This document shows positions 5,116 to 30,949 of a stretch of DNA of 30,949 nt, piece by piece. Position 1 is the stretch's first letter. Each line of letters starts with the position of its first letter. Origin of the DNA: Planctomycetota bacterium (GTDB lineage Bacteria; Planctomycetota; MHYJ01; WSZJ01; JACPWG01); the NCBI GenBank assembly GCA_016220045.1, contig JACRIP010000076.1, forward strand, positions 1 through 30,949. The letters run 5' to 3'. Under the pieces are notes generated by a model. It ran no database searches. It was not told the DNA's origin and saw only the letters and a program-made list of their open reading frames with translations. A program made the position numbers and the translations under genes.

Positions 5116-5137
5116 GAAGCCCGAACCCAACCGGGAA

Positions 5138-5166: not shown

Positions 5167-5179
5167 GCGTCGGCAACGG

Positions 5180-5208
5180 TTGCATTCAGGCCGGGTGACC
5201 GATATAAT
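5180..5208 (+). promoter_or_regulatory. Sigma70-type promoter for the M32 carboxypeptidase
   Basis: TTGCAT (5180-5185), 17-bp spacer, TATAAT (5203-5208). Confidence 0.7.
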
Positions 5209-5214
5209 CCGCGC

Positions 5215-5246
5215 CCCAAACGTCCAAACCTCCGAACTTCCAAACC
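5215..5246 (+). repeat. Octamer tandem array (TCCAAACC-like)
   Basis: Units CCCAAACG, TCCAAACC, TCCGAACT, TCCAAACC. Confidence 0.75.
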
Positions 5247-5293
5247 CGGTCCCGGCCGCCGCCGCCGGGCGGGATTCGCGTGGAGAGCTCCGC

Positions 5294-6817: not shown

Positions 6818-6887
6818 CGCCCATCGCTCCCCATGACCGGGGTTGCGGACCCGGTCGGGGTCGCGCCGTTTTCGCGATCGTCGGGAT

Positions 6888-7036
<149 letters not shown>

Positions 7037-14600: not shown

Positions 14601-14783
14601 GTGCCGCCGTGCGCAGTCGGTTTCAGAGACAACCGTAATGTCGCCCATCCAGGGCTCCGGCCGCCATGGATCCCTGCCCGGGTGTTCGCCCGTGGCGGCT
14701 GCAAGGCTGCCGCGGCGGGCGGGAACGCCTCGTTCTGGGGATCGAGCCCGCCCCGCGAGACTCCGACGCCGGACACCTCGCGG

Positions 14784-14984
14784 CGCAGGCCGGAAGGCCT
14801 GCGCCACAAAGGTTCCGCGCACATCATAGTTGACTTCGGGAGGGCGCCGGTAACTGTGGTGCAGGCCTTCCGGCCTGCACCGAACGGCCCAAAATCGTCG
14901 CCGCTTGCGCCAGCCGCTTCAGGTGAAGGCTACGCCGAAGACGAAGCGCCATGGGCCCATCGCTCCGCCTGAAGGCGGAACTAC
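14784..14984. repeat. Cluster of four REP-like palindromes
   Basis: Inverted pair GTGG(C/T)GCAGGCCTTCCGGCCTGC at 14784-14807 (minus) and 14856-14879 (plus). Minus-strand GTAGCCTTCACCTGAAGCGG (14914-14933) and GTAGTTCCGCCTTCAGGCGG (14965-14984). Confidence 0.75.
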
Positions 14985-15083
14985 AAACGAGCCGGTTGGC
15001 CGAGCTACGGTCCTGGGCACCGCGGACGGTCCGCCTGCCTGGGGCGGCGACTGGCGCTGTCGGGTCAAGTCCGACTGCGCTTG

Positions 15084-15175
15084 CGATAACTGCCAAACTT
15101 CCAAACTGCGCAACCGCCAAACCTGCACGCGAGCACGCGGGCGTCCGCCGAACCGCACGACCGCACGACCGCGCC
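15084..15175 (+). repeat. Octamer arrays downstream of glgA
   Basis: GCCAAACT, TCCAAACT, GCGCAACC, GCCAAACC (15092-15123) and ACCGCACG x2 plus ACCGCGCC (15152-15175). Confidence 0.65.
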
Positions 15176-15177
15176 GA

Positions 15178-16647
15178 CTACGCCCGCCCGGCGCAGAGCT
15201 TCTCGAAGAGCGCGGCGTACTCCTGCGCGCTGCGGCGCCAGGACCAGTCCTGCGCCATACCGGTGCGCACCATCCGCAGCCACGCCTCGTTCGTGCCGCC
15301 GTCGTAGAGCTTGATCGCCCGCGCGATCGCCGCGAGCAGCTCCTCGGCGTTGTACTTCTTGAAGACGAACCCGGTCGCGCTCCCCGCCGCCAGGCTCTCC
15401 GGCGTCGCATCCACCACCGTGTCCGCCAGCCCGCCGGTCTCGCGCACCAGCGGCACCGACCCGTAGCGCAGGCCATAGAGCTGGTTCAGGCCGCACGGCT
15501 CGTAGCGCGACGGCATCAGGAAGAGATCCGCGCCCGCATGGATCTCGTGCGCGAGCTGGTTGTTGAACCCGATCACCGCCGCCAGCTTCTTCGGGTGCTT
15601 GCCCGCCAGCGAGGTGATCGCCTTATGGTACTTCTCCTCACCCGTCCCCAGCACGGCGAGCTGGACGTCGAGCCGGAGCAGGCCCTCGAGCACCTGCAGC
15701 AGCAGGTCCACGCCCTTGTGGTCCACCAGCCGCCCGATCCAGCCGAGCACCGGCGCCGCGCTCGCCGGGAAGCCGAGCTTCTTCTGCAGCCACGCCTTGC
15801 ACGCCGCCTTGCCCCGCAGGTCCGCCGCCGAGTACGCCGCCGGGATCAGCTTGTCCGTCGCCGGGTCCCAGGCCGCCATGTCGATCCCGTTCGGCACCCC
15901 GGAAAGGTCGCGCTGCCGGTCCGCGAGCACCCCCTCCATCCCGCACCCGAACTCCCGCGTCTGGATCTCCTGCGCATACCGCCGGCTCACCGTCGTGATC
16001 GCGTCCGCAAAGACCAATCCCCCCTTCAGGAGGTTGAGCTTGCCCCAGAACTCGAGCTGCCGCCAGTTGAAGAGCGACCAGTCGAGCCCGGTCAGGTTCA
16101 TGTCCCAATGCCAGAACAGGCCCTGGTACGCGAGATTATGCACGGTAATCACCGTACGCGACTTCGCAAACACCGGGTCGGCGGCGTAGAGCGTCTTGCG
16201 GTAGACGGGCACGAGCGCGGTCTGCCAGTCGTGGCAATGGACGACGTCGTACGCCACGCCGAGCCGGCGGATGCCCTCGAGCGCCGCGCGGCAGTAGAAG
16301 ACGAAGCGCTCCGCATTGTCCGGGTAATCGCCCGAGGCGTCCCCGTAGAGCCCAGGACGGCCGAACAGCTCGTCTTCCTGGACCAGGTAGACCGGGATCA
16401 GGGTCTTCGGCAGCGTCGACTTCCAGAGGCGCGCCGTGCGCACCCGCGGACCGACCGGCACCGGATAGGGCTCGCCGACGGCGACCAGGTCGCGCGCCGC
16501 CTCGCGCGCGCCGGCATAGAGCGGCAGCACCAGGGCGACCTGGTGCCCCAGGGACTCCAGCGCGGCCGGCAGGCTGCCCGCCACGTCGCCCAGCCCGCCG
16601 GTCTTCGCGAAAGGCACCGCCTCCGGGGAGATCTCAAGGATGCGCAT
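15178..16647 (-). CDS. glgA: Glycogen synthase
   Basis: EAVPFAKTGGLGDV, VHCHDWQT, TVHNLAYQG, NGIDMAAWDP, PSRYEPCGLNQLY and TGGLADTV. Confidence 0.97.
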   Translation of the reverse strand: MRILEISPEAVPFAKTGGLGDVAGSLPAALESLGHQVALVLPLYAGAREAARDLVAVGEPYPVPVGPRVRTARLWKSTLPKTLIPVYLVQEDELFGRPGLYGDASGDYPDNAERFVFYCRAALEGIRRLGVAYDVVHCHDWQTALVPVYRKTLYAADPVFAKSRTVITVHNLAYQGLFWHWDMNLTGLDWSLFNWRQLEFWGKLNLLKGGLVFADAITTVSRRYAQEIQTREFGCGMEGVLADRQRDLSGVPNGIDMAAWDPATDKLIPAAYSAADLRGKAACKAWLQKKLGFPASAAPVLGWIGRLVDHKGVDLLLQVLEGLLRLDVQLAVLGTGEEKYHKAITSLAGKHPKKLAAVIGFNNQLAHEIHAGADLFLMPSRYEPCGLNQLYGLRYGSVPLVRETGGLADTVVDATPESLAAGSATGFVFKKYNAEELLAAIARAIKLYDGGTNEAWLRMVRTGMAQDWSWRRSAQEYAALFEKLCAGRA

Positions 16648-16746
16648 GGTCGATTCCGTCGATCGAAAGAGCGTTGCAGGTCGTACGTTTGCCGAGCGCG
16701 CGAGGGCGGATTGCGGATTTCCCCGCCATCAGCCCCGCATCCCCCC

Positions 16747-17751
16747 TCACGAGATCCGCACCTCCCGCAAAAACGCCGCGGCGTTCTCCGGCGGCACCGG
16801 GTTGATGTAGAACCCGGTCCCCCACTCGAATCCCGCGACCCGCGTGATGCGCGGGATGATTTCGATATGCCAGTGGTAGTAGTCCACTTCCCCGACGTCG
16901 AACGGGGTCGTGTGAATCAGGTAGTTGTACGCCGGGTTCGCCAGCGCGCCCTCGATCTTCGCCAGCGTCGCCTTCAGGATGTGCGCCAGGTCCGCGATCA
17001 GGTGCTGCGGGAGGTTCTCGAAGTGCGTCATGTGGCGCTTGGGCATGATCCAGGTCTCGAAGGGGAAGCGCGAGGCGAAGGGCGCGAAGGAAACGAAGTT
17101 CGGCTCGGAGACGACGATGCGGTCGCCGGTCTCGATCTCCTGCTTGATGATGTCGCAGAAGAGGCAGCGCCCGCGGTAGTCGAGGAAGTGCTTGCCGCCC
17201 TGCATCTCCTGCTGGACCTGCTGCGGGACCACGGGGGTCACGATGAGCTGGCTGTGGCTGTGCTCCAGGGACGCGCCCGCGGTCTCGCCGACGTTCTTGA
17301 AGACCAGGCCGTAGAGCAGCCGCACGTCCTTCTTGAGGTCCTGCAGGCGATCGCGGTAGACCCAGATGACCTCGCGGATCTCCTCTTCGGTCAGCCCGGT
17401 AAGCGAGGTCTTGTGGGTCGGGTGCTCAATGATGACCTCGTGGGCGCCGATGCCGTTCATGATGTCGTAGAGTCCCTCGCCGCGCTTGTCGAGATCGCCC
17501 TCGACGCGCAGGGCCGGGAACTTGTTGGAGACCACGCGCACGCGCCAGCCGCGGTCGTTCGCGCGCGTGTTGGGGTAGCGCATGGCGGAGATCTCGGGCG
17601 GCGTGGAGGCCTCGTTCCCTTCGCAGAAGGGGCAGGTGGCGGCCCCGCGGAGCGTCGCCGGGGCGGCCTTGAAGTCGATCGGCCGCTTCGCCCGCTCCGA
17701 AGCGATGATGATCCAGCGGCCGGTGATCGGATCCTTGCGCAGTTCCGGCAT
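16747..17751 (-). CDS. galT: GalT-family nucleotidyltransferase (annotatable as galactose-1-phosphate uridylyltransferase; substrate uncertain)
   Basis: MPELRKDP...[33 protein letters not shown]...[10 protein letters not shown] (HxHxQ nucleophile motif), YHWHIEI and GFEWGTG. Confidence 0.88.
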
Positions 17752-17767
17752 CGGGGTCCCTTCTCTC

Positions 17768-19948
17768 CTAGGCCTGCCAGTGGACGGTTTCGAAGTTCGG
17801 GCTGGGCACCTCGAACAGGAGGGGCCCCCCGGCCGGGAAGCGGCCTGCGGGCTCGCCCCGGAGCGCGAGTTCCACGTAGAACTCGGCGGTCTGATGCGGC
17901 GAAAACCCGAGTTCGCTGAACGGACACGCGATCTCGACGGCCTCGTCGCAGGCGGCGGCGCCGCACGCGCGCGCCACGCCGCCCGGCCCGACCGCGCGTA
18001 CGGTGGGCGCCGGTCGGTCGGGGCGGGCCGTCACCTCGATCGCCACCTCGCGCGGCGCGCCGAAGGTCACCAGCGCGCGCCAGTCGTCGCCCAGCACCTG
18101 TCGCGCCCGCCCGGCGGTCTCGAGCAGGAAGAACGCGTTCTCCGCGTCGAAGCCGAAACGGATGTGCGTGAGCAGGGGGCGGACGGCGCGGTCCATCGAG
18201 GAGACGTCCTTGGCGGTATCGTACTCTCCGGCGCCGATCCACTCAAAGTAATCGGAGCGACGGCCATCGACCCGCACCTTGAGGAGGGACTGTGGCGCCG
18301 TGAACAGGGCCGCCTTGTGCCGGCGCTTGATCGGCTCGAACAGGAAGGGCGGCACCTCGCGCGCGAGCGCGCGGTAAACGTTCATCAGGTGCGTCCGGAA
18401 GAGGGCGTCGAATTCCAGGTCGAGCGCGGAGGAGTGGTCGTCGCCGAACCACCAGAACCAGTCGCTGCCTTCGGCGGCGTAGAAGCACTCCCAGGCGAGG
18501 TCGAGCTTCTCCGGCGGGAGCGTCCCGGCGCGCGCGGCGGCCACCAGGTCCGAGCGCACGCGGCCGACGTACTCCCAGGCGCGCCGGTCCTCCTCGTGCC
18601 CGATCCAGATGTAGAAGTTGTGCGCGATCCAGGAGCCCGTGTAGAGGGTGGCGATGGACTCGGTCGGCGGGTTCTGCTCCAGGAAATCCCCGATACGCAC
18701 GGTCTCGAGGTCGGGATCGGCGGTCACGCCCTGGTAGAGGGCGCGCAGGAACTCGATGCCGTTCTTCGGATAGTGCTCCCAGGCGTTTTCGCCGTCGAGG
18801 ATGACGCTGACGAGGACGGGACTATGGCGCGCGCGCGCCTTGACCTCGCCGAGGCGGCGCAGGAAGTCCTCCGCGGCGCGGCGCGGCTCCTCGTGCTGGT
18901 ACTGGAACCCGAGGAGATCGGAGAGGCGGAGATCGCGGAAGACGATGCCCAGGTCGCGCTCGCGCCCGGGGAGACGGTACGGCCGGTAGAGCAGGTCGGG
19001 ATTTTCGAGGTTGCCGCGCGCGTCGCGCGCCGGCCAGCGGCCCACCGAATGGGCGAGGATCTCCTCGTCGGTCGCGATCCAGCGAATGCCGTATTTCTCG
19101 AGCAGGGGCAGGATCGCCGGGCTGACCGAGCCCTCGGCGGGCCACATGCCGCGCGGGTCGCGTCCGAACTGCCGCCGGTACAGCTCCACCGCGCGCCGGA
19201 CCTGGACCTCGGCGTCCTCGGCGGTGGCCAGCTCGACCTGGGGCAGGCGGCAGTCGGGCATGGCGACGCGCGCGGCGGCCACGTCGAGCAGGAGCGGCAG
19301 GATCGGATGGTAGAAGGGCGTGGTCGTGACCTCGATCCGGCCCTCGTCCTGCAGGCGGCGATGCAGGGGAATTACCTGACGCAGCACCTGCTTCTGCCGG
19401 TCGAAGACCAGCGCCTTGTCGTGCTCGGTGAAGTCGCGTCCGCGGTCGCGCAGGGCGGCGAGTTCGGCGTCGCGCTCGAAGACGAGCGGGTGGAACCACG
19501 CGAGGTTGGCGAGCACCTGGAGGTCGAGGAATTCGTGGACCGAGAATTCGCGGGTCGCGCGTCCGGGTCCGCGGCCGCGCAGGCCGGCCTTCTCCCAGAT
19601 CTGGGCGTAGCGCGGATAGGACTGGATGACGCGCGGATGGACCATGAAGAGGTGGGTGAGCATCCAGGCGCGGTCTTCTTCGGTGAGGTCGGTCGCGGGG
19701 AGGAGCGAGCGGCGCTGATGGGTGTCGATCGCCGCGCCCGACAGGTAGTCCTCGAGCTGGCGGAGGAGGCAGGGAACGAGGTTGAAGTTGAGGCGGAGCG
19801 CCGGGAATTCCTCGGCGAGGGCGGCCATGCCGAAGTAGTCCTTGGTGCCGTGGAGGCGGACCCAGGGCATGGCGACGTCCCCGGTGAGGAGGTCGCGGTA
19901 GCAGGGCTGGTGCTGGTGCCAAAGAAAGGCCAGGTGGACCTTGCCCAT
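17768..19948 (-). CDS. GH57 glycoside hydrolase, amylopullulanase-like
   Basis: [40 protein letters not shown] (nucleophile), [11 protein letters not shown] (acid/base) and AEGSDWFWW. Confidence 0.93.
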
Positions 19949-20001
19949 GACGACACCACGGGCGCTCCATGGGGGAGGGGGGCGGGGTTGGGGCGCGGCG
20001 A

Positions 20002-20029
20002 ATTATAGCAGGGGGGGGTGGATTTGCAA
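20002..20029 (-). promoter_or_regulatory. Extended -10 sigma70-type promoter for the GH57-galT-glgA operon
   Basis: Minus strand TTGCAA-16 bp-TATAAT with TGC immediately before the -10. Confidence 0.75.
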
Positions 20030-20094
20030 GGGATGGGGGGGGTGGGTGGGGCACGATCATGCTGGTATCCCGGCCGTACCGGCCAGAGGCCTCG

Positions 20095-20229
20095 CCCCCG
20101 TCGCACTCGTCGTTCCCGTCGCCCCCGTCGCACTCGTCGTTCCCGTCGCCCCCGTCGCCCCCGTCGCACTCGTCGTTCCCGTCGCCCCCGGCGCCCCCGT
20201 CGCACTCGTCGTCCCAGTCATTCCCGTCG
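20095..20229. repeat. Modular 9-bp tandem array (15 units)
   Basis: Units P=CCCCCGTCG, A=CACTCGTCG and T=TTCCCGTCG in the order P A T P A T P P A T P' P A X T. Confidence 0.9.
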
Positions 20230-20331
20230 TACCTCGTACCTCGTACCTCGTACCTCGTACTCGTACTCGTACTCGAATGCCCTGGACGTACGAGTACGAG
20301 TACGAGTACGAGTACGAGTACGAGATACGAG
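20230..20331. repeat. Hexamer-armed palindrome, copy 2 (between divergent genes)
   Basis: (TACCTCG)x4, (TACTCG)x3, 15-nt core AATGCCCTGGACGTA, (CGAGTA)x5. 21-bp perfect stem. Confidence 0.9.
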
Positions 20332-20406
20332 CACGACGGAGGCAGTGGCTTCGCTGAGGATGGCCGGTTCGGTCGAGATGCAAGAATGGCCATGCCCCCC
20401 GGCTCT

Positions 20407-20435
20407 TTGACAACTCGCCTCGGGAACGCTATAAG
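20407..20435 (+). promoter_or_regulatory. Sigma70-type promoter for the DUF900 hydrolase
   Basis: TTGACA (20407-20412), 17 bp, TATAAG (20430-20435). Confidence 0.65.
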
Positions 20436-20442
20436 GGCCGGA

Positions 20443-21585
20443 ATGTGCATCCCCCGACCCGCCCGGCGCCGCCTCCCCGTCCCGCTCGCGCTCGCCCTCG
20501 CGCTCCTCCTGCTCGCCGGCTGCCGCGCGCCGGCGCCCTCCGCCCCGGTCGACGTCCACTACGCCACCGACCGCGCGCCCGACGACCGGGAAGGCTTCCG
20601 CGGCGGCTACGGTGGAGCCCGCAGCCCGACCTTGCGCGTCGGCACGCGCAGCATCCGCGTCGCGTTGGACGCCGAGACCGGCGAGCAGGCGATCACCTAC
20701 GTCGCGCCGTGGAACCCGCCTCCGGCCGACGCCGCGGTCGCCGCCGGCGACGCGTCTGCTCCCACCGACCCCGCCGTCGACCCCATCGAGGCTCTCCGCG
20801 CCCGCCTCGCACGCGCGCCCGGCCGCGATGTCTTTCTCCACATCCACGGGTACGGAACCGACTTCGAGGAGGCGCTCTACCGCACCGGCCAGCTCGCCTG
20901 GGCCTTCGGGCGAACGCGCACGCCGCTGCTCTTCAGTTGGCCGTCGCGCGGCCGGGTGGGGATGTACACCCCGGACGAGGCGGCGGCGGAGTGGGCGAGC
21001 TACGACCTACGGCGACTCCTGGAGGCCATCGCGCCGGAGTGCGCCGCGCCGCGCATCCACGTGATCGCCCACAGCCTGGGCAGCCGCGCCCTTTGCTGGG
21101 CGCTCGCCGCGCTCGGACGCGAGCGCGCACCCGGCGCCGGCCCGCGTTTCGGCGAAATCGTCCTGGCCGCCCCCGACCTCGACGCCGACGTGCTCGCGCG
21201 CACCCTGCCCGACCTCGCCGGCCTCGCCCGCCGCATCACCCTCTACCAGGCGAACAACGACGTGGCCCTCCGCCTCTCCTCCGCGCTCCACGCCGCGCCG
21301 CGCGCCGGCGACAGCCATGTCGTGCCCTTCCTCGCTCCCGGCGTCGTCACGATCGACGTCACCGAAATCCAGGAGGGGGTGCTCGGCCACGCCTACTTCA
21401 TTCTCAACCGGCGCGTGCGCGCGGACCTCGCCGCCCTGCTCGACGGGCGCACGGAAGAAGAGCGCGGGCTGACGCCGATCGCGAACGGCGCGGGCGCGCG
21501 CGCCTGGAAGATCCCCGCCCCGGGCGGCACGACCGACGGCCTGCGCCCTGCGCTCTACCGCCTCCGCGGCGGCCGCGGGGACTGA
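20443..21585 (+). CDS. Putative lipoprotein alpha/beta hydrolase (DUF900 family)
   Basis: Signal peptide with lipobox LALALALLLLAG-C. Motifs HYATDR, LHIHGY, LFSWPSRG, IAHSLGSR (nucleophile elbow), VLAAPDLD and GHAYF. Start reset to ATG 20443. Confidence 0.88.
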   Translation: MCIPRPARRRLPVPLALALALLLLAGCRAPAPSAPVDVHYATDRAPDDREGFRGGYGGARSPTLRVGTRSIRVALDAETGEQAITYVAPWNPPPADAAVAAGDASAPTDPAVDPIEALRARLARAPGRDVFLHIHGYGTDFEEALYRTGQLAWAFGRTRTPLLFSWPSRGRVGMYTPDEAAAEWASYDLRRLLEAIAPECAAPRIHVIAHSLGSRALCWALAALGRERAPGAGPRFGEIVLAAPDLDADVLARTLPDLAGLARRITLYQANNDVALRLSSALHAAPRAGDSHVVPFLAPGVVTIDVTEIQEGVLGHAYFILNRRVRADLAALLDGRTEEERGLTPIANGAGARAWKIPAPGGTTDGLRPALYRLRGGRGD

Positions 21586-21629
21586 CCGGCCGGCGCCTAG
21601 AGTGTGCACGGCCGCGCCTGCGCGTTGCC

Positions 21630-21737
21630 GTAGGGGCGCCCCGGGTGGGCGCCCCCCAGCGCCGACGTTGTCGGCAGGCGGGGCGGGCATCCCCCTTCGC
21701 CTCCGGCTACGGGGGACCGGCCAAGGCCCGCCCCTAC
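21630..21737 (+). repeat. 108-bp REP-doublet-like element, copy B
   Basis: 9-bp terminal inverted repeat GTAGGGGCG...CGCCCCTAC with internal hairpins. 98/108 identical to 11411-11518. Lies between convergent genes. Confidence 0.9.
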
Positions 21738-21840
21738 GACGAAAACCTTGGGTGTGCGGTCTCCAGCAGCCAGACTTGCGGGTAAAGATCAGCCCGCAGC
21801 CATCCCCCCTCCGGAGCCCCCCGCTTCCCCCGCGTTTCCC

Positions 21841-23193
21841 CTACTCGACCACGAACTCCTGTTTCGTGATCACGTCGCGTTCCAGGGTCACGCTGAGCCG
21901 ATCCACCGCCGTGCCGTCGATGTAGAGCACGACGGTGTAGGCACCCGCCGCAAGATGCCCGCTCTGGAATCGCCCGTCCATTTCCACGCGCCGCAGCACC
22001 AGGTCGTTCCCCTGCCCGTCCTGGATCGCGAGGTAGGCGTTGGTCATCGGCTGCCCGCCCGCACGGTGCACCAGCCCCTCGAACTGCCCGCCGCCCTGCG
22101 CCAGCGCGAGCGTCACCGGCGCCGGCTCCCCCTCCGGCATCACCGTCGCCGCCGCCGCCGCCGTGGCGTACCCTTCGAGCATCCCCACCAGCGTGTAGGA
22201 GCCCGGATCGAGCGAGGTGAAGCGGAAGTTCCCCTCCTCGTCGCTGAAGACGCTCGTCATTTCGGCCGCGACGATCCCTTCGAGCAGGTTGTTCGGGGCG
22301 GCGGAATCGCGCTTGCGGGCGCATACGGCGACTCCCTGAAGCGGTTGGCCGGTGCCCGAGTCGATCGCGCGGCCGGAGATGCCGAGCCGGGTGAAAAGAA
22401 CGTCGAGGCGCCGTTCGGCGACCGCGGGAACGTCGAGGGTCACGCGCGCGATCCGCGTCGGGTCGTCCGGATGGGTCACGATCAGCGTGTAGGTCCCGGG
22501 CAGCACGCCCTGCAGGGAGAAGAGGCCGGCGGCGTCCGAGGTCGCGTTCTTGGTGGAGAGCCCGCCCCCGTCGCCGGTCACGCTCTGGCCCGCGCTCAGG
22601 CCCGCCAGCGAGATCAGGGTGACGAGCGCGCCGGCCACGCGCTGTCCCTCGGCCAGAACCGCGCCATGAATGCGCGTCCCGGCCTCGACGCCGAAATTCA
22701 CCGTCGCCAGCTCGCCCTTCTTGAGCGTGACGATCCGGTCTTCGAAGGCGCTGTAGCACGGCCGCTCCTGGTTCTGGATGCTGTTGAGTGAGATCAGGTA
22801 GGAACCTGGGGGCAGGCCCTCGATGCGGTAGTAGCCGCGCGCATCGGTGAGGTTGGCGCCGCCCTCGCCCTCGAAGCCGGTGGCGGAGACCAGGAAGCCG
22901 GCGAGCGCGGCGTGATCGGGTCCGAGGACCAGCCCTTCGACGCCGGCCTGCTCGGTGCCCGTGGAGGCGGGCGCGCCGGTCGCCGCGGGGGTGCCACCTG
23001 CGGGCGGGCGGCCGTCGGGCCGGCGCGGACCGGCGCCGCCGGGGGAGGTGGACGGCCGCCTCCCCGGCGGGAATTCCCGGGTGGCGAGGTGGCGGATGGT
23101 GCTGCGAAGGCGGAAGGCCTGCGCAGCGCCGCATGGTGGAGTCGGGCTGAGGCGCTTCACCGATTCGCCCCACCCGCGAATTCGTCGATTCAA
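21841..23193 (-). CDS. Carboxypeptidase-regulatory-like (CarboxypepD_reg) repeat protein, four domains; start uncertain
   Basis: Four repeats of G-x-V/A...(T/S)D-x-x-G-x-(F/Y)...L-x-(P/A)-G-x-Y-x-(L/V): TDARGYYRIEGLPPGSY, SDAAGLFSLQGVLPGTY, SDEEGNFRFTSLDPGSY and MDGRFQSGHLAAGAY. No signal peptide visible. Confidence 0.75.
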   Translation of the reverse strand: MNRRIRGWGESVKRLSPTPPCGAAQAFRLRSTIRHLATREFPPGRRPSTSPGGAGPRRPDGRPPAGGTPAATGAPASTGTEQAGVEGLVLGPDHAALAGFLVSATGFEGEGGANLTDARGYYRIEGLPPGSYLISLNSIQNQERPCYSAFEDRIVTLKKGELATVNFGVEAGTRIHGAVLAEGQRVAGALVTLISLAGLSAGQSVTGDGGGLSTKNATSDAAGLFSLQGVLPGTYTLIVTHPDDPTRIARVTLDVPAVAERRLDVLFTRLGISGRAIDSGTGQPLQGVAVCARKRDSAAPNNLLEGIVAAEMTSVFSDEEGNFRFTSLDPGSYTLVGMLEGYATAAAAATVMPEGEPAPVTLALAQGGGQFEGLVHRAGGQPMTNAYLAIQDGQGNDLVLRRVEMDGRFQSGHLAAGAYTVVLYIDGTAVDRLSVTLERDVITKQEFVVE

Positions 23194-23339: not shown

Positions 23340-26300
23340 TCAAGGTGTGGGGCGTGGTCGGCCCTCGCGCGGCGGCCGCGCCGCGGCGGGGGCGGAGGTC
23401 GGTTGTGCGGTGGACGATCTTCCACGCGCCAGGGCGGCGCGGACGCGATCAGGGGACAGCCGCTTCGGGAGGTCGTCCAGGTCGTAGACGGCCCAGCCGT
23501 CGGAAAACTGGACGGAGGCATCGAGATCGAACGTATCTACATAGCCATCGGGCGTCCAGGCGACTTCTCGTGGAATGAGCTGGTTCCCTCGCGCCAAGCG
23601 GACCAACCATCGCGGCGTGGCCAGGGACACGTCCCAGATCGTGGTCGTGCCATCCTCCGCTTCGCAGGCAAGCAGGTCCCCTGCGGGATGCCAAGCGATC
23701 GATTCGACCGGCCCCCCGTGGTCCAGAGGAGTGCATGCAACACGGCCGGAGGCGGCGTCCCAGAGGCGGACGGTGTGGTCGTCTGCGCCCGAGCCGAGGC
23801 GTGTTCCTTTCGGGTCCCATGCGACCGAGTTGACCACACTGCCATCCCCTTCGAGGGCGCGGAGGAGGAGGCCGGAGGCGGTATCCCAGAGGCGGACCGA
23901 GCAGTCGTCGCTACCCGATGCGAGGTGTTCCCCTTTCGGGTCCCATGCGAGGGACGAGACCGGGCCCCCGTGTCCCTTGAGGACCCGGAGGAGGCGGCCA
24001 GAGGTGGGGTTCCAAAGGCGTACGGTGTGGTCGTTGCCGGCTGACGCGAGGCGGTCCCGCTTCGGATCCCAGGCGACGGACCGGACCGGGCCCTCGTGCC
24101 CTTCGAGTGTCCGGAGGAGGCGGCAGGAGGAGACATCCCAGAGCCGAACTGTGCTGTCCTCGGCGCTCGATGCGAGGCGCTTCCCCGTCGGGTCCCAGGC
24201 TACAGACAAGACTACTGGACCTCGGTGTTCTTTGAGAGAGAGGAGATGCTTGCCGGAGTCGAGGTCCCAGATCTGCATCTTGCCGCCGCCCGCCCCGAAG
24301 GCGAGGCGATTCCCTTTCGGGTCCCACACAACGGATCGGACCCCGCCCAGGGGGACATCGCGGTCTACGTGGCTTCTGAGCACGTGACCGGAGGCCGTGT
24401 CCGTGACATCGATTGTGCTGATGATCGCGCCCAACATTCTGCGGTTCGCGATCGAGGCGAGACGTTCTCCCGTCGCATCCCAAGCGACGGCGCGACCGAA
24501 AGCCTCGTACCCTTCAAGGGCGCGAACGAGGCTGCCGGAGGCGGGGTCCCAGAGGCGGACGGTACCGTCATGGCCGCCCACCGCTATGCGTTCCCTTTTC
24601 GGGTCCCAAGAAACGGAATGAACGCTGCCCTCGGGTCCTTCCAGGGTCTTGAGGAGGAGGCCATCGTTGGCGTCCCAGACGTGGATGGTGCGGAAGTGCG
24701 CGTCCGAGGCGAGCCGCTCCCCCTTTGGGTTCCAGGCGACAGACAAAACCGGATTCCCGCGTCCAGCGAATGCGCGGAGGAGGCGGCCGGAAGTCGCGTC
24801 CCAGAGGTGGATTGTGGCGCAGTTCGCGACCGAGGCGAGCCGCTCCCCCTTCGGGTCCCAGGCGACATCCGAGACGTTACCCTGGTGTCCATCGAGGACG
24901 CGCAGGAGGCTGCCCGAGGCCGCATCCCAGAGGCGAACCGTGCGGTCGTCTGCGGCCGAGGCGAGGCGCTCCCCCTTCGGCTCCCATGCGACGCGATGGA
25001 TCGGAGCCGTATGTCCTTCGAGGACGCGGAGAAGGCTGCCTGAGCCGGTATCCCAGAGGCGAACCATGCAGTCGCTTGAGGCCGATGCCAAGCGATCCCC
25101 TTTCGGGTCCCATGCGATGGCCCAGACCTGATCCTGATGCCCCGCGAGGGTCCTTAGGACACGCCCAGCGGCTGCGTCCCAGAGGCAGACGGTGAAGTCG
25201 TCCGAAGCCGATGCGAGCTGCTCCCCCTTTGGATCCCAGGCGACGCACCAGACTGGCCCCCTGTGTCCTTCCAGGACGCGGAGGAGGCGGCCGGTGTCGG
25301 CGTCCCAAAGGCGGATCGAATGATCGGCGCCCGCGGAGGCCATCACTCGGCCGTCCGGGGTCCACGCGATCGCATGCACAGGGCCGGTGTGCCCGACCGC
25401 CAAAGAGAACTGCAGCTCTCGTGCAACAGACCCGCCCGTCGTGCGGTCTACAGGAGGAGGACCGTCTCCCATCCGCGCGCCCAGAAAACCCGCTCCGGTG
25501 CAACTCGCCAACTTCAGAGTCGCGCCCGTCAGATCCGCGTGCGCAAACCTCGCGAATGCCGCGGACACTCCCGACAGGTCAGCTTGGCAAAGGTCCGCGC
25601 GACGGAGGTCCGTATGATCGAGGCTCGCACCCAGGAGCCGCGCCGCAATCATGCGGGCGCTGCGAAGGTCGGCGAAGTCCAATTTCGCCGCGCTCAAATC
25701 CGCGCCGCCAAGCTGGGCGCCGCGGAGGTCAGCGTGAGACAGGTTTACGCGGGCAAGCGATGCGCCCGAGAGATCGATCCCGCGCAGGTCCTCGCCCGAT
25801 AGGTCCGCATCGACGGCGCGAATCGCCGCAGGACGTACACCGCCGAAGGCCTCGCTCATCGCGGCGATTCGATCCGGGTGCTCCCCGGGGTCTGGACCCG
25901 GAACCAAGGGGCCGAGGCGGGCTCGAGCGTGATGGTGGAGGAGGAGCAGGGCATTTGCGGCCACGCGCGGTGGCGACTCCGCCCCGAGGATGCTCGCGGT
26001 GAAGGCGGGGATCTTGGCGGCCTCCGGCCACGATTCCAGAAAGAAGGCGACCTCCCTCGTTACGCGCCTCAGGTCGAGGCAGCTCGCATCTGCCCGCGCG
26101 ATCCCGGCCCTGAGCGTCCGCGCGATGAAGAACTCCAGGAAGGACCTGTGAATGAAGGAGTAGTATCCTTCAGGATTACGGTTGAGGAAGAGCGCGGTGC
26201 GGACCTCGGAATCGACCTTGTCCTTGTCGTAGGCCGTCAGCGGCTTGTCCTTGAAGAACTCGTTCGCTTTTTCGTACAGCGTCTCGTAGTGGACCCGAGT

Positions 26301-28619
26301 CTCGGGCGAATCCCAGACCAAGCGCGCGAGGTACTCGACGAGGGCAACCTTCCGTTCGCGGGTCAAGGTCAGCCGGTAGTCCGTGTGGTTGAACCACTCC
26401 TCGCAGTAGGTCTCGTACAGGTCGGCGACGGTCACCGTCTTGCCGCCGTGCGTCGCCGAGAGCCTCGGCAAGGTCCGAACGATGAGTTCCAGGAGGAAGG
26501 GCCGGGTGGCCAAGTCTTCAAGGTTGTACGTCCGGCGGATCTGCTCCCGAAATTCCTTCCAGTTCGCCGGGGGAGGCAGAGCCTTGGCAAGGTACTCGTC
26601 CACTTGCTCGGACGCAAACTCAAGGATGTACCCGATCTCGGACCCGGGCCGCTCGCGAATTTCCTGGTAGAGCGCGGTGGCGCCCTCGGTGGAAACGACG
26701 TCCGGCACCTTCCCGAGGCGTCGAAGCTCGTCCGGCCGATCCTTGAAGTAGTGTGTTCGGCACGTCAGGAGCACCTTCGCGCGCCCCTCGGCGGCGAGTA
26801 CGATCTGACGCAAAATCTCCAGATAGCGGCCGGCGTCGGCATAGCCGATGATCTCGTCGAAGCCGTCGAAGAGGAGGACCAACCGACCCTCGCGATTCAG
26901 GTGGAGGAGCGCCTGCGGGTTGAAGGGACGTGTGGTGAGGGTCTGGAAGTGATTGGCGAGGATGTTCTCCAAGGTCACGGCGCTGGAGCGCGCCTCGCGC
27001 AAGTCGATCAGGATGGGAACGCGGGCTGCACGACGCGAGGCGCGCGCGGCGAGGGCCAGCTCGCAGGAGAGGCGGCGACAGAAGGAGGTTTTCCCTGCAC
27101 CGAAGTCGCCGAGCAAGGTGAGGAGGGATTCCCCAGGCCGGTCCAGCCAGGCACGCACGACCTCGCCCAAGGGGCGCGCCGCGATTTCCGCTCCAGGTCG
27201 GATTTCGCTTTGCAGCAGGGCGCTCTGCCCGACGTACAAGCGCTCTAGCGCGCTCCCCTGATAGTCGCGGACGGCCTTGTCGAGGACTGGGGTCAGGTCC
27301 ACAAGGGAGAAGAGGAGGTCTTCCCAGGTGAGCAGGCGGACGAAGTGCTGTTGGGCAACCGCGAGGGCGTTGTTGGCGAAGTGGGAGCGGGCGACCAGGA
27401 TGGCCCGGTAGTCCAGGTTGTCGGCCTTGCGGGCGTGCTCGACCTTTTGGGCGAACTCCAGGACCATCTTGTGCGAGACGGGGTCGTCCGTGTCCTTGCA
27501 TTCCACCAGGGCGTATGTGGGGAGGGCATTCCCCTCCTGCGCAAGACGGACGTCGAACTGGAGATCGTCCCGCTTGTAGTCCACGCCGGCCTGAAAGCCC
27601 TGGAGGCGGAAGAGTTCGGCGACCCGCTCCTCGAATGACTTGGCCCGCTCGAGGATCTCTCGCCGATGCTGGGAGTCGAGGGGGTCCTTCTCCCCGCGCC
27701 CACCTGGCCGCACCCGCGCGGCACGCTCGCTGCCCGCGCGCTCGCCTGCATCCGTCCATTCCGCGTATCGCCCCTCAATCTCCTCGACCAGCGGGGCGTA
27801 GTCCGTCGCGAACGGAACAAGGTTGCCCAGGTGAGGCAAGGTGGGGATCTCGTCCGTGAGGAGGAGTTCGGGGCGGAGCGGCAAGATCAGGTGCGGCGTG
27901 AGGCCGTCGTTCTCGAGCTGACGAAGCTTGGCGAATCGCAGGTCCCCGGGTTCCTGGGGTACCATGTTGGCGACCAGGAATGCGGGGATGTTGCGAGTGC
28001 GTCGACCGCGCGCGGCGGTCACTGCGGCGTGTACCCTAGCGAGCCCGTGGAGGTTCTGTTCGTTCAGGTTGAAGACGAGGATGGTCAGATCCGGGAGTTG
28101 GATGGCCGAGACCGCTCCCAGATCGGTGAAACCAGTGCGGGCATCGATCAGAAGGTACTCGAACCCGAGGTCCTGGGTGAGGAGAGTGGCGAGCTTGTGG
28201 AAGAGAGCAGGCCCGGGACCACTCTTTGGGGCGAAGAGCGCGGACCAGTCTACCTCCGAGAAGCGGCGACCGTAAGTGCTCTGGTTCTCCTCGTGGGAGC
28301 TGGAGAAGAGGAAACCCAGGCGCCCCTTGGCGGCGGTGAGGTGCCCAGGAAGGTCCAGGGGGACGATCGCCTGTTCAATTCTCTCCTTGGTCGGAAATGA
28401 GAAGCGGCTCTTCTGGAACTCCAAAAGGAGGTCGAGCGTTCCGACGGTGGATTGCTTCTCGATCGCGGCGAGGGCTGGGAGTTTCTGTAGCCCCGGCGCC
28501 TCGAGATCGAGATCCCAGACCAAAACGGAGCGGCCGCGCGCGGCGAGTTGCGCCGCGCTCTCGACCAGCAGGAAGGTGCGGCCCACGCCGCCCTTGAAGG
28601 AGTAGAACGTGACGATCAT
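23340..28619 (-). CDS. NLR-like protein: KGGVGR ParA/MinD-like ATPase + Mrr-like nuclease + NACHT + pentapeptide repeats + 14 WD40
   Basis: TFYSFKGGVGRT and WDLDLEAPGL (aa 1-45). FEERVAELF..FDVR..VECK (aa ~326-435). Walker A GDFGAGKT (27087-27110), Walker B LLFDGFDE and LTCRTHYF. A(D/N)Lxx pentads at aa 938-1050. 14 GH..WD repeats at aa 1076-1663. Confidence 0.93.
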   Translation of the reverse strand: MIVTFYSFKGGVGRTFLLVESAAQLAARGRSVLVWDLDLEAPGLQKLPALAAIEKQSTVGTLDLLLEFQKSRFSFPTKERIEQAIVPLDLPGHLTAAKGRLGFLFSSSHEENQSTYGRRFSEVDWSALFAPKSGPGPALFHKLATLLTQDLGFEYLLIDARTGFTDLGAVSAIQLPDLTILVFNLNEQNLHGLARVHAAVTAARGRRTRNIPAFLVANMVPQEPGDLRFAKLRQLENDGLTPHLILPLRPELLLTDEIPTLPHLGNLVPFATDYAPLVEEIEGRYAEWTDAGERAGSERAARVRPGGRGEKDPLDSQHRREILERAKSFEERVAELFRLQGFQAGVDYKRDDLQFDVRLAQEGNALPTYALVECKDTDDPVSHKMVLEFAQKVEHARKADNLDYRAILVARSHFANNALAVAQQHFVRLLTWEDLLFSLVDLTPVLDKAVRDYQGSALERLYVGQSALLQSEIRPGAEIAARPLGEVVRAWLDRPGESLLTLLGDFGAGKTSFCRRLSCELALAARASRRAARVPILIDLREARSSAVTLENILANHFQTLTTRPFNPQALLHLNREGRLVLLFDGFDEIIGYADAGRYLEILRQIVLAAEGRAKVLLTCRTHYFKDRPDELRRLGKVPDVVSTEGATALYQEIRERPGSEIGYILEFASEQVDEYLAKALPPPANWKEFREQIRRTYNLEDLATRPFLLELIVRTLPRLSATHGGKTVTVADLYETYCEEWFNHTDYRLTLTRERKVALVEYLARLVWDSPETRVHYETLYEKANEFFKDKPLTAYDKDKVDSEVRTALFLNRNPEGYYSFIHRSFLEFFIARTLRAGIARADASCLDLRRVTREVAFFLESWPEAAKIPAFTASILGAESPPRVAANALLLLHHHARARLGPLVPGPDPGEHPDRIAAMSEAFGGVRPAAIRAVDADLSGEDLRGIDLSGASLARVNLSHADLRGAQLGGADLSAAKLDFADLRSARMIAARLLGASLDHTDLRRADLCQADLSGVSAAFARFAHADLTGATLKLASCTGAGFLGARMGDGPPPVDRTTGGSVARELQFSLAVGHTGPVHAIAWTPDGRVMASAGADHSIRLWDADTGRLLRVLEGHRGPVWCVAWDPKGEQLASASDDFTVCLWDAAAGRVLRTLAGHQDQVWAIAWDPKGDRLASASSDCMVRLWDTGSGSLLRVLEGHTAPIHRVAWEPKGERLASAADDRTVRLWDAASGSLLRVLDGHQGNVSDVAWDPKGERLASVANCATIHLWDATSGRLLRAFAGRGNPVLSVAWNPKGERLASDAHFRTIHVWDANDGLLLKTLEGPEGSVHSVSWDPKRERIAVGGHDGTVRLWDPASGSLVRALEGYEAFGRAVAWDATGERLASIANRRMLGAIISTIDVTDTASGHVLRSHVDRDVPLGGVRSVVWDPKGNRLAFGAGGGKMQIWDLDSGKHLLSLKEHRGPVVLSVAWDPTGKRLASSAEDSTVRLWDVSSCRLLRTLEGHEGPVRSVAWDPKRDRLASAGNDHTVRLWNPTSGRLLRVLKGHGGPVSSLAWDPKGEHLASGSDDCSVRLWDTASGLLLRALEGDGSVVNSVAWDPKGTRLGSGADDHTVRLWDAASGRVACTPLDHGGPVESIAWHPAGDLLACEAEDGTTTIWDVSLATPRWLVRLARGNQLIPREVAWTPDGYVDTFDLDASVQFSDGWAVYDLDDLPKRLSPDRVRAALARGRSSTAQPTSAPAAARPPREGRPRPTP

Positions 28620-29509
28620 GGCGATCCCCGCGAACCTAGCGTGGGACTCGGACTAAAGGCCCAGACCGGGTGCCGATCCTGGTTGTCGATCGAGATCAAG
28701 TTGAAGTGGGGATCCTCTTCCCGGACCTGTGCGTTGAGGCTGGCGCCGGCGAAGGGGGCGGCGGGGGGCCGGAGGGCGGCGGCGGCCCGGGCAAGCGCGG
28801 CCGCCGCGGGGGAAGGGGCGCCGGCCGCGATCAGCTCGGTCTCCAGAACCGCGGCATTGGCGGCCTCGAATGGAGAGTCGGCAATCCGCTCGAGCACCGC
28901 GACCAGGAATTTGACCCACGGCGGAAGAAGCCGGTCCCGGACGAACTCTCTGCCGATCGCGCCGACCCCGACGAGCACGGTCTTGCTTCCTTCGGGTCGA
29001 TGCCGGACGAGCAAGTCGGCCTCCTCGAGGTCGCGCAGCAAGTGCGAAAGTTGCGACTCCGAGATGCTCAGTTTTTGTTTGATCTGTGCGCGGGGCACAG
29101 CTCCGCTGCCTGCCGCTAGGATCTCGAGTAGCCGGCGTCCGTGTTTGGGATAGCTTGCGAGGATCGAGTCCACGGCGGCCGGGTCGCTGCGACGAGCGGC
29201 CTCGGAGAGGAGGTCTGCCAGGGCGTTCCATGACCCCACGATCTGGGGGTGCGCGGCGCGCAATGGGTCGGCCGAAGGGGCGGCGAGACTGCGGTGAAGT
29301 GTGAGTGCCTCGTCCGCGACCTCGGAGCGCGCGCCCCGCCGGAGAAGGTGGAGTGTGCGATGGATCAGGAGCCCAGTGAGCCGCCCGAGTCGGCGCTCCG
29401 GCGTGGACGCGGAGGCCCGGTCCAGGAGGGGTGCGATCCGCTCCATCGGGGCGTCAAGCAGGGATGTGAGGTCGTCCGGAATCGGATCGTCGGGCATCGA
29501 ATCAATCAT
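28616..29509 (-). CDS. Winged-helix (MarR/ArsR-like) domain protein coupled to the NLR-like gene
   Basis: Central GRRLLEILAAG..VPRAQIKQKLSISESQLSHLLRDLEEADLLVRHRPEGSKTVLVGV wHTH pattern. Its TGA overlaps the next ATG (ATGA, 28616-28619). Start is 29509 or 29497. Confidence 0.75.
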   Translation of the reverse strand: MIDSMPDDPIPDDLTSLLDAPMERIAPLLDRASASTPERRLGRLTGLLIHRTLHLLRRGARSEVADEALTLHRSLAAPSADPLRAAHPQIVGSWNALADLLSEAARRSDPAAVDSILASYPKHGRRLLEILAAGSGAVPRAQIKQKLSISESQLSHLLRDLEEADLLVRHRPEGSKTVLVGVGAIGREFVRDRLLPPWVKFLVAVLERIADSPFEAANAAVLETELIAAGAPSPAAAALARAAAALRPPAAPFAGASLNAQVREEDPHFNLISIDNQDRHPVWAFSPSPTLGSRGSP

Positions 29510-29537
29510 CCATCAAGCATGTGCATGACACCTGACA

Positions 29538-29567
29538 ATTATACTTGGCGGATGCTTGATTTGTCAA
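29538..29567 (-). promoter_or_regulatory. Consensus sigma70 promoter with overlapping inverted repeats
   Basis: Minus strand TTGACA-18 bp-TATAAT. Inverted repeats ATCAAGCAT (29512-29520) / ATGCTTGAT (29552-29560) and TGACAA (29533-29538) / TTGTCA (29561-29566). Confidence 0.85.
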
Positions 29568-29640
29568 TGTCGATTTCTCAACTGTAACGTTCACATGGAG
29601 TTGCGGCAGCGCAGTTTGGACCGAAACGAATCGAGAAGGC

Positions 29641-30949
29641 TCATGGGCTCACCAGAAGGAGTTCTAGATCGAATTCCAAGAACGAGGGATGCCCCCTCGC
29701 GGGATCGTGCACGCGGGGTTGCTTCGGAGCGGCTGCAACCAGGTAGAAACTGGCGCGTTCGTTGAACGGTTGGGAAGGGTCGGCGGCCAGGAGGGTCCGA
29801 TTGGACACGAAGCTGCTCGCGAGGAGCCTCTGCCGTACGTTTCGGGCGGCAGTGTCGTGAGCCGAGATCTTCGGGCTCAGCGAGGGTACCGCGAAGAGGT
29901 TTCCATGCGCTTCGCAGAGCAGGTCCTGGAGAGGTCCATTGATGAAATCGGCGCAGATGAGCGGTACGAGGTTGCCGACAGACGACTCGAGGATCGCAAT
30001 CTCGGACCCGGTCTCGAGGTTCTCGCCTACCGGGTGGTCGGGATCCTTGCGGTTGTCGTAGGGAACGAGCTTCCGGTGCCGGTGCAGTTCTACGCCCGTA
30101 GGCCCGAGCAGGACGCACTCATTCCACACCTGCCCCTGCGTCCCGCTCGCCAAGTGGGTACACCCAAACAACGTCAGCATCGGATGGCCGCCGGGATCGT
30201 GCGACTGGAGTCGTTGCTTCAGTGTCGTCTCGATCGTCGGCGGAATGGTCAACTCCGGGAAGATCAGTAGCGTCGTCTTCCGTCGGACGCCCTCCTCGAC
30301 CGCCATCAAGACTTCCTTCAGGAGGTCGGCCTCATTCGCTATTGAATCCAGCGTCAGAAAACTCGGCCGTGGTGTGGCTTTGAGGAGCTTCAAACTGGTG
30401 TACTCGAGGTGGGTCTTGAACGGCCAGAGCATGACCCGCAGCCCTTTGCGCTCGTTGTGCAGGCGCTGGTGGAGGAAGGAGCCCCCCCAGTCGGACCGGG
30501 CACGCCGGGAAAGATGCGCACCGGCATGCTCGATCAGCGGGACCGCGACATGGTGCCGCGCGTAAGCGCGGAGTGACCTCCCTTCGTGGCGCTCCCAACT
30601 CGGCTCCCGAAAAGCAGCGTCCTCCAAAACCTCAGCGAGGTAGGCATTGGATGGGCCGAGCCGATAGGTCCTGCCATCCAGCCCTTGGTAGTGGGTCTCA
30701 CCAGCCAGATCCGGAGGTGCGTTCTTCAGCCGCCGATCCACTTCGATGAGCGATCCGAGCACAAGCCGCGCGAACCCCACGATATTCTTCGCGGCGACCA
30801 GATTGGCCCTCCACTCGGCTACGAGTCTTTCCCATGCGACATCATGTCTGGAGGGCGTCTGTCCGCGCAAAGAGTACTGGTGAATTCCGTCCCGCCGCAG
30901 GGCATCCTCCGCGGAGCCCAGGTCCACACCGGGACTCTTGAAGTAGCTC
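29641..30949 (-). CDS. Carbon-nitrogen hydrolase (nitrilase-fold) protein with unknown N-terminal region; probably 5'-truncated by the window edge
   Basis: Triad motifs LLIFPEL (Glu), HRKLVPY (Lys) and LICADF (Cys), plus WNECVLLGPTG. The frame stays open upstream of the GTG at 30927 to the window end. Confidence 0.82.
   Translation of the reverse strand, partial: SYFKSPGVDLGSAEDALRRDGIHQYSLRGQTPSRHDVAWERLVAEWRANLVAAKNIVGFARLVLGSLIEVDRRLKNAPPDLAGETHYQGLDGRTYRLGPSNAYLAEVLEDAAFREPSWERHEGRSLRAYARHHVAVPLIEHAGAHLSRRARSDWGGSFLHQRLHNERKGLRVMLWPFKTHLEYTSLKLLKATPRPSFLTLDSIANEADLLKEVLMAVEEGVRRKTTLLIFPELTIPPTIETTLKQRLQSHDPGGHPMLTLFGCTHLASGTQGQVWNECVLLGPTGVELHRHRKLVPYDNRKDPDHPVGENLETGSEIAILESSVGNLVPLICADFINGPLQDLLCEAHGNLFAVPSLSPKISAHDTAARNVRQRLLASSFVSNRTLLAADPSQPFNERASFYLVAAAPKQPRVHDPARGHPSFLEFDLELLLVSP

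Follow-up and report, generated by a model that had tools for sequence, protein, structure and literature searches.

The toxin–antitoxin–ParA, or "TA-ParA", systems have recently been proposed as a ternary class in which a toxin and its antitoxin are joined by a ParA domain fused to a sensor (Li, Burroughs and Aravind, 22 October 2026, 10.64898/2026.10.19.760177). In this preprint, which is cited here for its text as distinct from its figures and supplements, both the class and the model of its action are computational only. The text groups ParA domains associated with immunity in a clade named ConB2, characterized by an arginine in place of the Walker A lysine and by a PG dipeptide past sensor-1. 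One of the subtypes combines a carbon–nitrogen (C-N) hydrolase toxin with a helix-turn-helix (HTH) antitoxin, and the sensors fused to ParA include TPR, SAVED and NACHT plus β-propeller modules. According to the proposed model, the antitoxin restrains the toxin, and sensing makes ParA switch, releasing the toxin; where a STAND (signal transduction ATPases with numerous domains) module is present, a two-step cascade of nucleoside triphosphatases (NTPases) is expected, which is stated for the TIR-ParA systems. Here, we analyze a cassette of three genes at one end of a 30,949-bp contig of a Planctomycetota bacterium (JACRIP010000076.1, assembly GCA_016220045.1), the whole of which is hereafter called the window. 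The genes encode a nitrilase-fold protein (P0003), a winged helix-turn-helix (wHTH) protein (P0002) and a large ParA-Mrr-NACHT-pentapeptide-WD40 protein of the NOD-like receptor (NLR) type (P0001).

Other described systems share individual components with this cassette. Bacterial NACHT proteins (bNACHTs) carry the Walker B signature D[GAS]hDE (Kibby et al., 10.1101/2022.07.19.500537), and the nitrilase domain of the DRT1 system is an oligomerization-dependent effector of abortive infection that adopts a closed-lid state at rest (PMC13275509). We favor, with moderate confidence, the view that the locus is a three-component conflict cassette of the TA-ParA class, probably acting in anti-phage abortive infection.

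Comparison of the cassette with described systems

On sequence grounds, the cassette is a member of the TA-ParA class and of its C-N hydrolase subtype, every sequence-level defining feature named in the text of the preprint being present. The ParA domain of P0001 matches NCBIfam NF047398, the KGGVGR-variant AAA ATPase family, and is of the ConB2 type: in its Walker A motif, FKGGVGRT (residues 8-15), an arginine (R14) replaces the P-loop lysine, the Walker B aspartate is D159, and a PG dipeptide follows the DxD of sensor-1 within DLDLEAPG (residues 36-43). The window shares the order toxin, antitoxin, ParA sensor, on one strand, with 8 further independent loci. The first two genes encode proteins with the C-N hydrolase and HTH folds, the level at which the subtype is assigned, and are adjacent in 15 of the 15 resolved loci. 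The sensor, a NACHT module followed by 14 WD40 repeats, is fused C-terminally to ParA.

A preliminary description of the window, made from the sequence alone, had regarded the combination of the three genes as undescribed and had proposed that the absence of a full hit to known defense systems would support this. PADLOC indeed returned no complete named system, only partial domain matches, but the claim of novelty falls because the C-N hydrolase plus HTH subtype of the TA-ParA class covers the cassette. For P0001, the PADLOC matches are confined to single domains: HEAT-ARM_XIII (WD40 region), PDC-M28B (ParA), ZorD (Mrr) and mad8. The PDC-M28B match (E 5e-22) lies on the ParA domain only and covers positions 131-353 of the 438 in the profile; neither P0002 nor P0003 matched PDC-M28A in PADLOC, and a literature search on PDC-M28 found no publication.

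Several features go beyond the text of the preprint. These are the dependence of the linkage on ParA, a fusion of the wHTH protein with the ParA protein, a stand-alone nitrilase/wHTH pair with an asymmetry of the toxin/antitoxin type, and a conserved promoter and candidate operator with CAAG repeats. The Mrr domain between ParA and NACHT, the block of pentapeptide repeats and the solo paralogs without ParA that are found here are likewise absent from that text, figures and supplements lying outside this comparison.

The cassette resembles bNACHT systems in its NACHT domain with the D[GAS]hDE signature (the Walker A pattern GxxGxGK[ST] is also present), its N-terminal enzymatic effector, its C-terminal repeat sensor and its patchy distribution. 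It differs in that the tested bNACHTs are single-gene systems lacking both ParA and nitrilase/wHTH partners, and the PADLOC models of bNACHT and Avs did not match P0001. With the DRT1/UG5 fusions of reverse transcriptase (RT) and nitrilase (PMC13275509; PMC13436386), it shares a nitrilase fold as the effector that, as proposed here, is inactive until triggered and needs oligomerization to act, but it has no RT domain and its nitrilase is a separate protein with an N-terminal extension of its own. The match of P0003 to the PADLOC RT_UG5-nitrilase model is marginal (E 0.0089 over 76 residues). As in type II toxin–antitoxin (TA) systems of the higBA and mqsRA type, the gene of the candidate toxin lies 5' of the gene of its DNA-binding partner, a promoter located just before the partner allows it to be expressed independently, and the candidate toxin was not seen without the partner. 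In contrast to these systems, the "toxin" is an enzyme of 450-490 amino acids with a fold not known for TA toxins, and the partner is a three-domain protein of about 300 amino acids. Finally, the TIR-ParA and FxsC-FxsT systems, as described in the text of the preprint, also have a ConB2 ParA domain grafted onto STAND modules and a proposed two-step NTPase cascade; in TIR-ParA, however, the effector is a TIR protein encoded upstream, and the nitrilase/wHTH pair is missing.

Domain organization of the large protein

The three open reading frames (ORFs) of the cassette lie on the minus strand (Table 1), and the start codon of P0001 overlaps the stop codon of P0002 as ATGA. ORF and domain-profile analysis reproduced what the preliminary description had reported of the locus, namely three co-oriented genes, the ATGA coupling, the order of domains in P0001, its two P-loop domains, the nuclease domain, the catalytic motifs and the 14 repeats; its assignment of the locus to conflict cassettes of the NLR/STAND type is supported by the domains and motifs described below. 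Full-length relatives of P0001 with 48-62% identity are encoded in many metagenome-assembled genomes (MAGs), and a second tier shows 31-39% identity.

Conservation of the motifs was counted on an alignment of 54 full-length homologs of P0001. In the ParA domain, KGGVGR is retained in 52 homologs (R14 itself in 52/54), as are D38, P42 and D159 (52/54 each), followed by G43 (51/54) and D36 (49/54). The NACHT domain carries the Walker A motif GDFGAGKT (residues 504-511) and the Walker B motif LLFDGFDE (DGFDE at residues 585-589), and both are nearly universal, with GxGK[TS] in 52/54 homologs and D585, D588 and E589 in 52-53/54. In the Mrr-type nuclease domain, the catalytic residues are kept by most homologs (D356 in 50/54, E373 in 46/54 and K375 in 43/54), and the domain is predicted to be active. 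The possibility that this is an inactive "NA-iREase" was considered and rejected, given the retained D/E/K residues and the E-value of 3.4e-10 for Mrr_cat versus 0.0076 for NA-iREase1. The WD40 repeats, with a period of 42 residues (126 bp in the DNA), are predicted to form two 7-bladed propellers that serve as the sensor.

Conservation of the gene neighborhood

The link of the nitrilase gene to the other two genes had been left open in the preliminary description, which called for a survey of homologous neighborhoods. Such neighborhoods were drawn from contigs encoding homologs, two collection scans and genome searches, and were scored with tblastn, hhalign and Pfam. The full trio, nitrilase, wHTH and ParA-Mrr-NACHT in this order on one strand, was found in the window and in loci L003, L004, L008, L011 and L012, the flanks of which are unrelated. 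The same order is seen in the distant relatives L020/L024, L021 and L022 (32-36% identity), in which the first gene is silent in Pfam searches, matches the nitrilase profile with an hhalign probability of 98.8-99.2% and retains the Glu, Lys and Cys motifs. The three genes thus co-occur in nine independent loci, the window and 8 others, down to 32% identity, which settles the question of the link. Several loci show a 4-bp overlap between the wHTH gene and the NLR gene, and in L022 the wHTH and ParA-Mrr-NACHT proteins are encoded by a single ORF, a "Rosetta-stone" fusion that suggests their physical interaction.

A nitrilase-like gene followed by a gene of the wHTH family is present in all 15 resolved independent loci, which include several with other third genes or with none. 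In L023, the pair stands alone and is followed by a convergent gene for a phosphoenolpyruvate-utilizing enzyme; in L009, the third gene encodes a protein of 419 aa that weakly matches Peptidase_C25, and in L013 a ParA protein with the canonical KGGVGK motif. L044 (5098-9013, minus strand), from another genome, contains a divergent paralogous cassette with 4-bp overlaps, consisting of genes for a nitrilase-like protein (515 aa), a protein of the wHTH family (366 aa; wHTH profile match of 96.5%) and a 424-aa third protein without an assigned family. No ParA was detected in the L044 cassette, and the third genes of L009 and L044 are unrelated to each other. In L045, a second paralog in its genome, the match of the middle gene to the wHTH profile has a probability of only 25%, and the third gene encodes a histidine kinase. 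Judged by this occurrence, the nitrilase/wHTH pair is a conserved, autonomous two-gene module of a toxin–antitoxin-like kind. In the resolved loci, to which L045 does not belong, the nitrilase gene is never found without the wHTH gene, and the wHTH gene is found once without the nitrilase gene; in this small sample of 15 loci, the asymmetry is the one that a toxin–antitoxin pair would be expected to show.

The paralogs of P0001 that lack ParA, encoded in the mutually syntenic L017 and L018 and in L019, are accompanied by neither partner gene, and the comparison of neighborhoods shows the linkage of the nitrilase/wHTH pair to the NLR to depend on the ParA domain.

Several variants of the locus were noted along the way. 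The single locus with wHTH and ParA-NACHT genes and no nitrilase gene, L002, carries in the place of the latter a divergent Gp49 (HigB-like)/HTH_37 pair (6196-6911, minus strand), which may represent a swap of the toxin because Gp49-HTH is named as a toxin subtype of TA-ParA in the text of the preprint (10.64898/2026.10.19.760177). In L019 (7001-12175, protein P0049; also P0043, P0052 and P0054), the WD40 repeats are replaced by condensation and adenylation (and carrier) domains of non-ribosomal peptide synthetases (NRPSs). These proteins are near relatives of the Mrr-NACHT-pentapeptide part of P0001, lacking ParA and the nitrilase/wHTH partners, and an NLR that ends in an NRPS module is unusual. 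A 1737-aa protein is intact in one of the two syntenic loci L020 (7001-12214) and L024 (10029-13981) and split in the other into a 1087-aa product, which extends from ParA to the pentapeptide repeats, and a 242-aa WD40 remnant. Two short metagenome contigs carry apparent deletion variants, in which the wHTH gene is followed by reduced versions of the large gene: in L014 (172-1958), a shortened wHTH gene precedes Mrr-NACHT without ParA, and in L016 (2-1309) only a fragment of the extreme C-terminal tail of the P0001 type remains.

The nitrilase-fold and wHTH proteins

P0003 is truncated by the end of the contig: homologs align further upstream, indicating that the 5' end of the gene, some 35-50 codons, is lost. 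An internal GTG at position 30927 was rejected as the start codon, given that the homologs align about 35-50 residues upstream of it. The nitrilase fold is preceded by an N-terminal extension of about 200 residues. A profile built from the alignment of P0003 matched Nit/Nit2 structures in the PDB (E 2e-6), and the AlphaFold2 (AF2) model (mean predicted local distance difference test score, pLDDT, 81.6; predicted template modeling score 0.88) retrieved yeast Nit2 (4hg3) as the best Foldseek match (E 2.7e-11) at 10-17% identity. The Glu-Lys-Glu-Cys site is intact, with E232, K293, E309 and C332 shared by all of 11 homologs compared. In an exhaustive search of representatives among 1.84 billion proteins, the family had 307 representatives at E<=1e-30. 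P0003 is predicted to be the toxin, or effector, of the cassette.

P0002 contains a weak wHTH of the MarR/ArsR type at residues 125-181, and its alignment profile matched OhrR/MepR in the PDB (E 2e-6). The AF2 model (pLDDT 78.7) consists of a helical N-terminal domain (residues 14-119), the winged helix (123-182), helices up to residue 245 and a disordered tail (251-297). Foldseek searches with this model yielded only MarR/ArsR matches, all of them weak (E about 0.01), and left the helical N-terminal domain unmatched. P0002 is predicted to act as an antitoxin or adaptor and as an autorepressor. Its tail (residues ~250-297, window 28616-28760; columns ~320-359 of the wHTH alignment) contains a semi-conserved motif, roughly [DE]xH[FY]...R-P-P...[FW], which is missing in the shorter, distant homologs of L020 and L021 and through which P0002 may contact the nitrilase or the ParA domain.

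Promoter and candidate operator

The strong promoter that the preliminary description had placed between the nitrilase and wHTH genes is confirmed as a σ70-type element, TTGACA-18-TATAAT, matching the consensus at 12 of 12 positions. Its spacer contains two direct repeats of CAAG about one helical turn apart, and this arrangement recurs in 10 loci as T[GT]GACA-N18-TATNAT with CAAG...CAAG; in some of them, the nitrilase coding region ends only past the -35 box. The pattern GAC[AG]N14CAAGTA, which was taken from these same sequences and is hence post hoc, occurs 10 times in the 357 kb of all DNA fetched, each time just 5' of a wHTH start codon and on the coding strand. Without selection, it is difficult to account for such positional exclusivity among loci whose proteins share 37-50% identity. 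A separate promoter is thus likely to serve the wHTH and NLR genes, with the CAAG repeats as the candidate operator of the wHTH protein. The window also contains a perfect 9-bp inverted repeat, one arm of which lies within the promoter spacer and the other immediately before the wHTH start codon (ATCAAGCAT / ATGCTTGAT); it was found in the window only and not in the other loci.

Mechanism and alternative explanations

In the model that we favor, the wHTH protein would, at rest, act on the CAAG repeats to repress its own promoter, hold the nitrilase inactive and dock on ParA. The restraint of the nitrilase might consist in blocking the oligomerization that nitrilases need; that the wHTH protein may prevent nitrilase assembly is suggested by analogy with DRT1, the nitrilase of which requires oligomerization (PMC13275509). 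Binding of an invader-derived molecule by the WD40 propellers would cause the NACHT module to bind a nucleoside triphosphate and oligomerize, and the oligomers would bring the ParA domains into ATP-dependent dimers, a second switch. The dimers would then strip the wHTH protein off or rearrange it, and the freed nitrilase would destroy an essential amide- or amine-bearing metabolite, while the clustered Mrr domains would cut DNA as a second effector, so that the infected cell halts its growth or dies.

As to the effectors, the preliminary description had assigned the killing to the nuclease and an accessory role to the nitrilase. The first part is consistent with the intact catalytic residues of Mrr, which may be a second effector, but the second is probably to be reversed: the nitrilase is more likely the main effector than an accessory because the nitrilase/wHTH pair is autonomous and the nitrilase never occurs without the wHTH protein. 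The latter, in turn, more likely combines the role of a repressor with that of a neutralizer or adaptor. An extension of the model, which we offer tentatively as a possibility that may well not hold, makes the wHTH protein a three-way adaptor that sits on the CAAG operator, restrains the nitrilase toxin and serves as a ParB-like partner of ParA in a dual-effector receptor with two NTPases, the Arg/Pro-rich motif of its tail contacting ParA or the toxin. If this is the case, an NLR acting via a ParA switch would license a trans-acting metabolic toxin together with a fused nuclease.

A number of observations weigh against the favored model or against a plain toxin–antitoxin reading. Translational coupling joins the wHTH gene to the NLR gene and not to the nitrilase gene, which has a separate promoter outside the DNA seen; L002, the sole such case, keeps the wHTH gene without the nitrilase gene, so that the wHTH protein is not only an antitoxin. 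The replacement of lysine by arginine in the P-loop leaves ATP hydrolysis by the ParA domain uncertain, and a minority of homologs lack the catalytic residues of Mrr. Furthermore, the readable flank of the window consists of housekeeping genes and is not a defense island, and no relatives of the nitrilase or wHTH proteins were found on viral contigs.

The alternative that best survives these data, which we nevertheless regard as unlikely, is a classical single-protein NLR, with Mrr as the sole killer, the wHTH protein purely as a regulator and the nitrilase as an accessory or regulatory protein. The layout of effector, NTPase and repeats with an intact Mrr D/E/K is the standard architecture of bNACHTs, the ParA-less Mrr-NACHT-WD40 paralogs occur as solo genes, L002 lacks the nitrilase, and the wHTH and NLR genes share a promoter separate from that of the nitrilase. 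This explanation does not account, however, for the invariance of the nitrilase catalytic tetrad over 11 diverged homologs, for the retention of the nitrilase/wHTH pair with third genes that are not NLRs and on its own, or for its presence, among the NLR loci, only where the ParA domain is present, and the fusion in L022 suggests a contact of the wHTH protein with the NLR beyond regulation.

Distinctly less probable is a function outside immunity, in which a STAND regulator comparable to MalT or AfsR and a MarR-type repressor would control a metabolic amidase or nitrilase, the cue being a small molecule or a protein. The nitrilases of the Nit branch are metabolic enzymes, MarR-type regulators commonly adjoin the enzymes under their control, and the neighbors of the cassette in the window are metabolic; but the sensor is fused to a nuclease with intact catalytic residues, and the ParA domain is of the conflict-associated KGGVGR/ConB2 type that matches the PADLOC candidate PDC-M28B. 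The very patchy distribution, the unrelated flanks and the swapping of third genes between loci also argue against metabolic regulation, as do the private N-terminal extension of the nitrilase and its low identity (10-17%) to metabolic nitrilases. A chance adjacency, with an independent TA-like pair that stabilizes the locus as an addiction module beside an unrelated NLR, can hardly be credited: although the pair is alone in L023 and TA pairs are common beside defense genes (PIN/PhdYeFM in L004, VapB in L020), nine independent loci, some at an identity as low as 32%, keep the same order and orientation, the wHTH gene and the NLR gene share 4 bp in several loci and are fused in L022, and the pair is missing beside the ParA-less paralogs.

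Under the favored TA-ParA model, the cassette is of interest in several respects. The proposal that ParA-type ATPases act as immune switches dates only from October 2026, and the cassette is a single operon that unites a nitrilase with a ParA switch and an NLR, for which the solo ParA-less paralogs, the stand-alone nitrilase/wHTH pair and the wHTH-ParA fusion are natural controls. It provides a handle on the release of a trans-acting toxin by an NLR, on the role of a ParA domain with the Lys-to-Arg replacement and on the substrate of a defense nitrilase; if the model fails, the definition of the TA-ParA class would need revision.

Distribution and genomic surroundings

The cassette is rare and mobile. 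Its family is patchy, being present in 2 of 401 genomes in the phylum of the window and in 1 of 401 in another phylum, and the closest named protein relatives are from Thermoanaerobaculia/Acidobacteriota MAGs. A collection scan with the nitrilase alignment yielded 2 loci, one of which duplicates L004, and a metagenome scan with the wHTH alignment yielded 8. Two of the loci have defense-related neighbors: those of L022 (1174-3718) resemble a defense island, with SMODS (a CBASS-type cyclase), MZB and PLDc_2, and those of L004 include PIN/PhdYeFM and SIR2.

The window is the entire contig of an 81%-complete MAG of 710 contigs, with a G+C content of about 70%. In its readable flank (12393-23193), no mobile-element or defense genes were found; the genes identified there are listed in Table 1 after the features of the cassette.

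Table 1. Features of the cassette and of the readable flank, with positions in the window; residue numbers refer to P0001
Feature	Residues	Position	Strand	Basis or remark
Nitrilase-superfamily (C-N hydrolase) gene, P0003		29641..30949	minus	CN_hydrolase E 7.5e-7
σ70-type promoter TTGACA-18-TATAAT, 5' of wHTH gene		29567-29538	minus	12/12 match
9-bp perfect inverted repeat ATCAAGCAT...ATGCTTGAT		29511..29559	minus	inverted-repeat scan
wHTH gene, P0002, 297 aa		28616..29509	minus	HTH_27 E 1.6e-4
Large protein gene, P0001, 1759 aa		23340-28619	minus	ORF
ParA/MinD-like domain, ConB2 type	2-199	28023..28616	minus	NCBIfam NF047398, 128.5 bits vs cut-off 90
Mrr-type PD-(D/E)xK nuclease domain	327-435	27315..27641	minus	Mrr_cat E 3.4e-10
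NACHT STAND NTPase module	500 to ~920	25860..27122	minus	Pfam NACHT 500-633, E 2.2e-8, 34.6 bits vs cut-off 26.7
Pentapeptide-repeat region	~925-1050	25470..25847	minus	E 9e-19
14 WD40 repeats	1066-1663	23631..25424	minus	WD40 E 3.5e-120
C-terminal tail past the propellers, then stop	~95 residues	23340..23630	minus	translation
CarboxypepD_reg repeat protein		21841-23193	minus	readable flank
DUF900 α/β hydrolase		19969-21585	plus	readable flank
GH57 α-glucan enzyme, second		17768-19948	minus	readable flank
GH57 α-glucan enzyme		12393-14822	minus	readable flank, 12393-23193

Two further KGGVGR-ParA genes were observed in the same MAG. On contig C467 (L039, 10000-21000), a second cassette occupies positions 2511-6597 on the minus strand, where the genes for a TIR protein (206 aa) and a 605-aa ParA protein share a 4-bp overlap, with the gene for a 527-aa TIR protein coming next; this arrangement looks like the TIR-ParA class as described in the text of the preprint (10.64898/2026.10.19.760177). 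On contig C574 (L038), a third KGGVGR-ParA gene, fused to TPR, lies at 4029-5960 on the plus strand and is interrupted by the end of the contig; the upstream ORFs, of 351 and 290 amino acids, have no Pfam match, and the locus may be another TA-ParA cassette.

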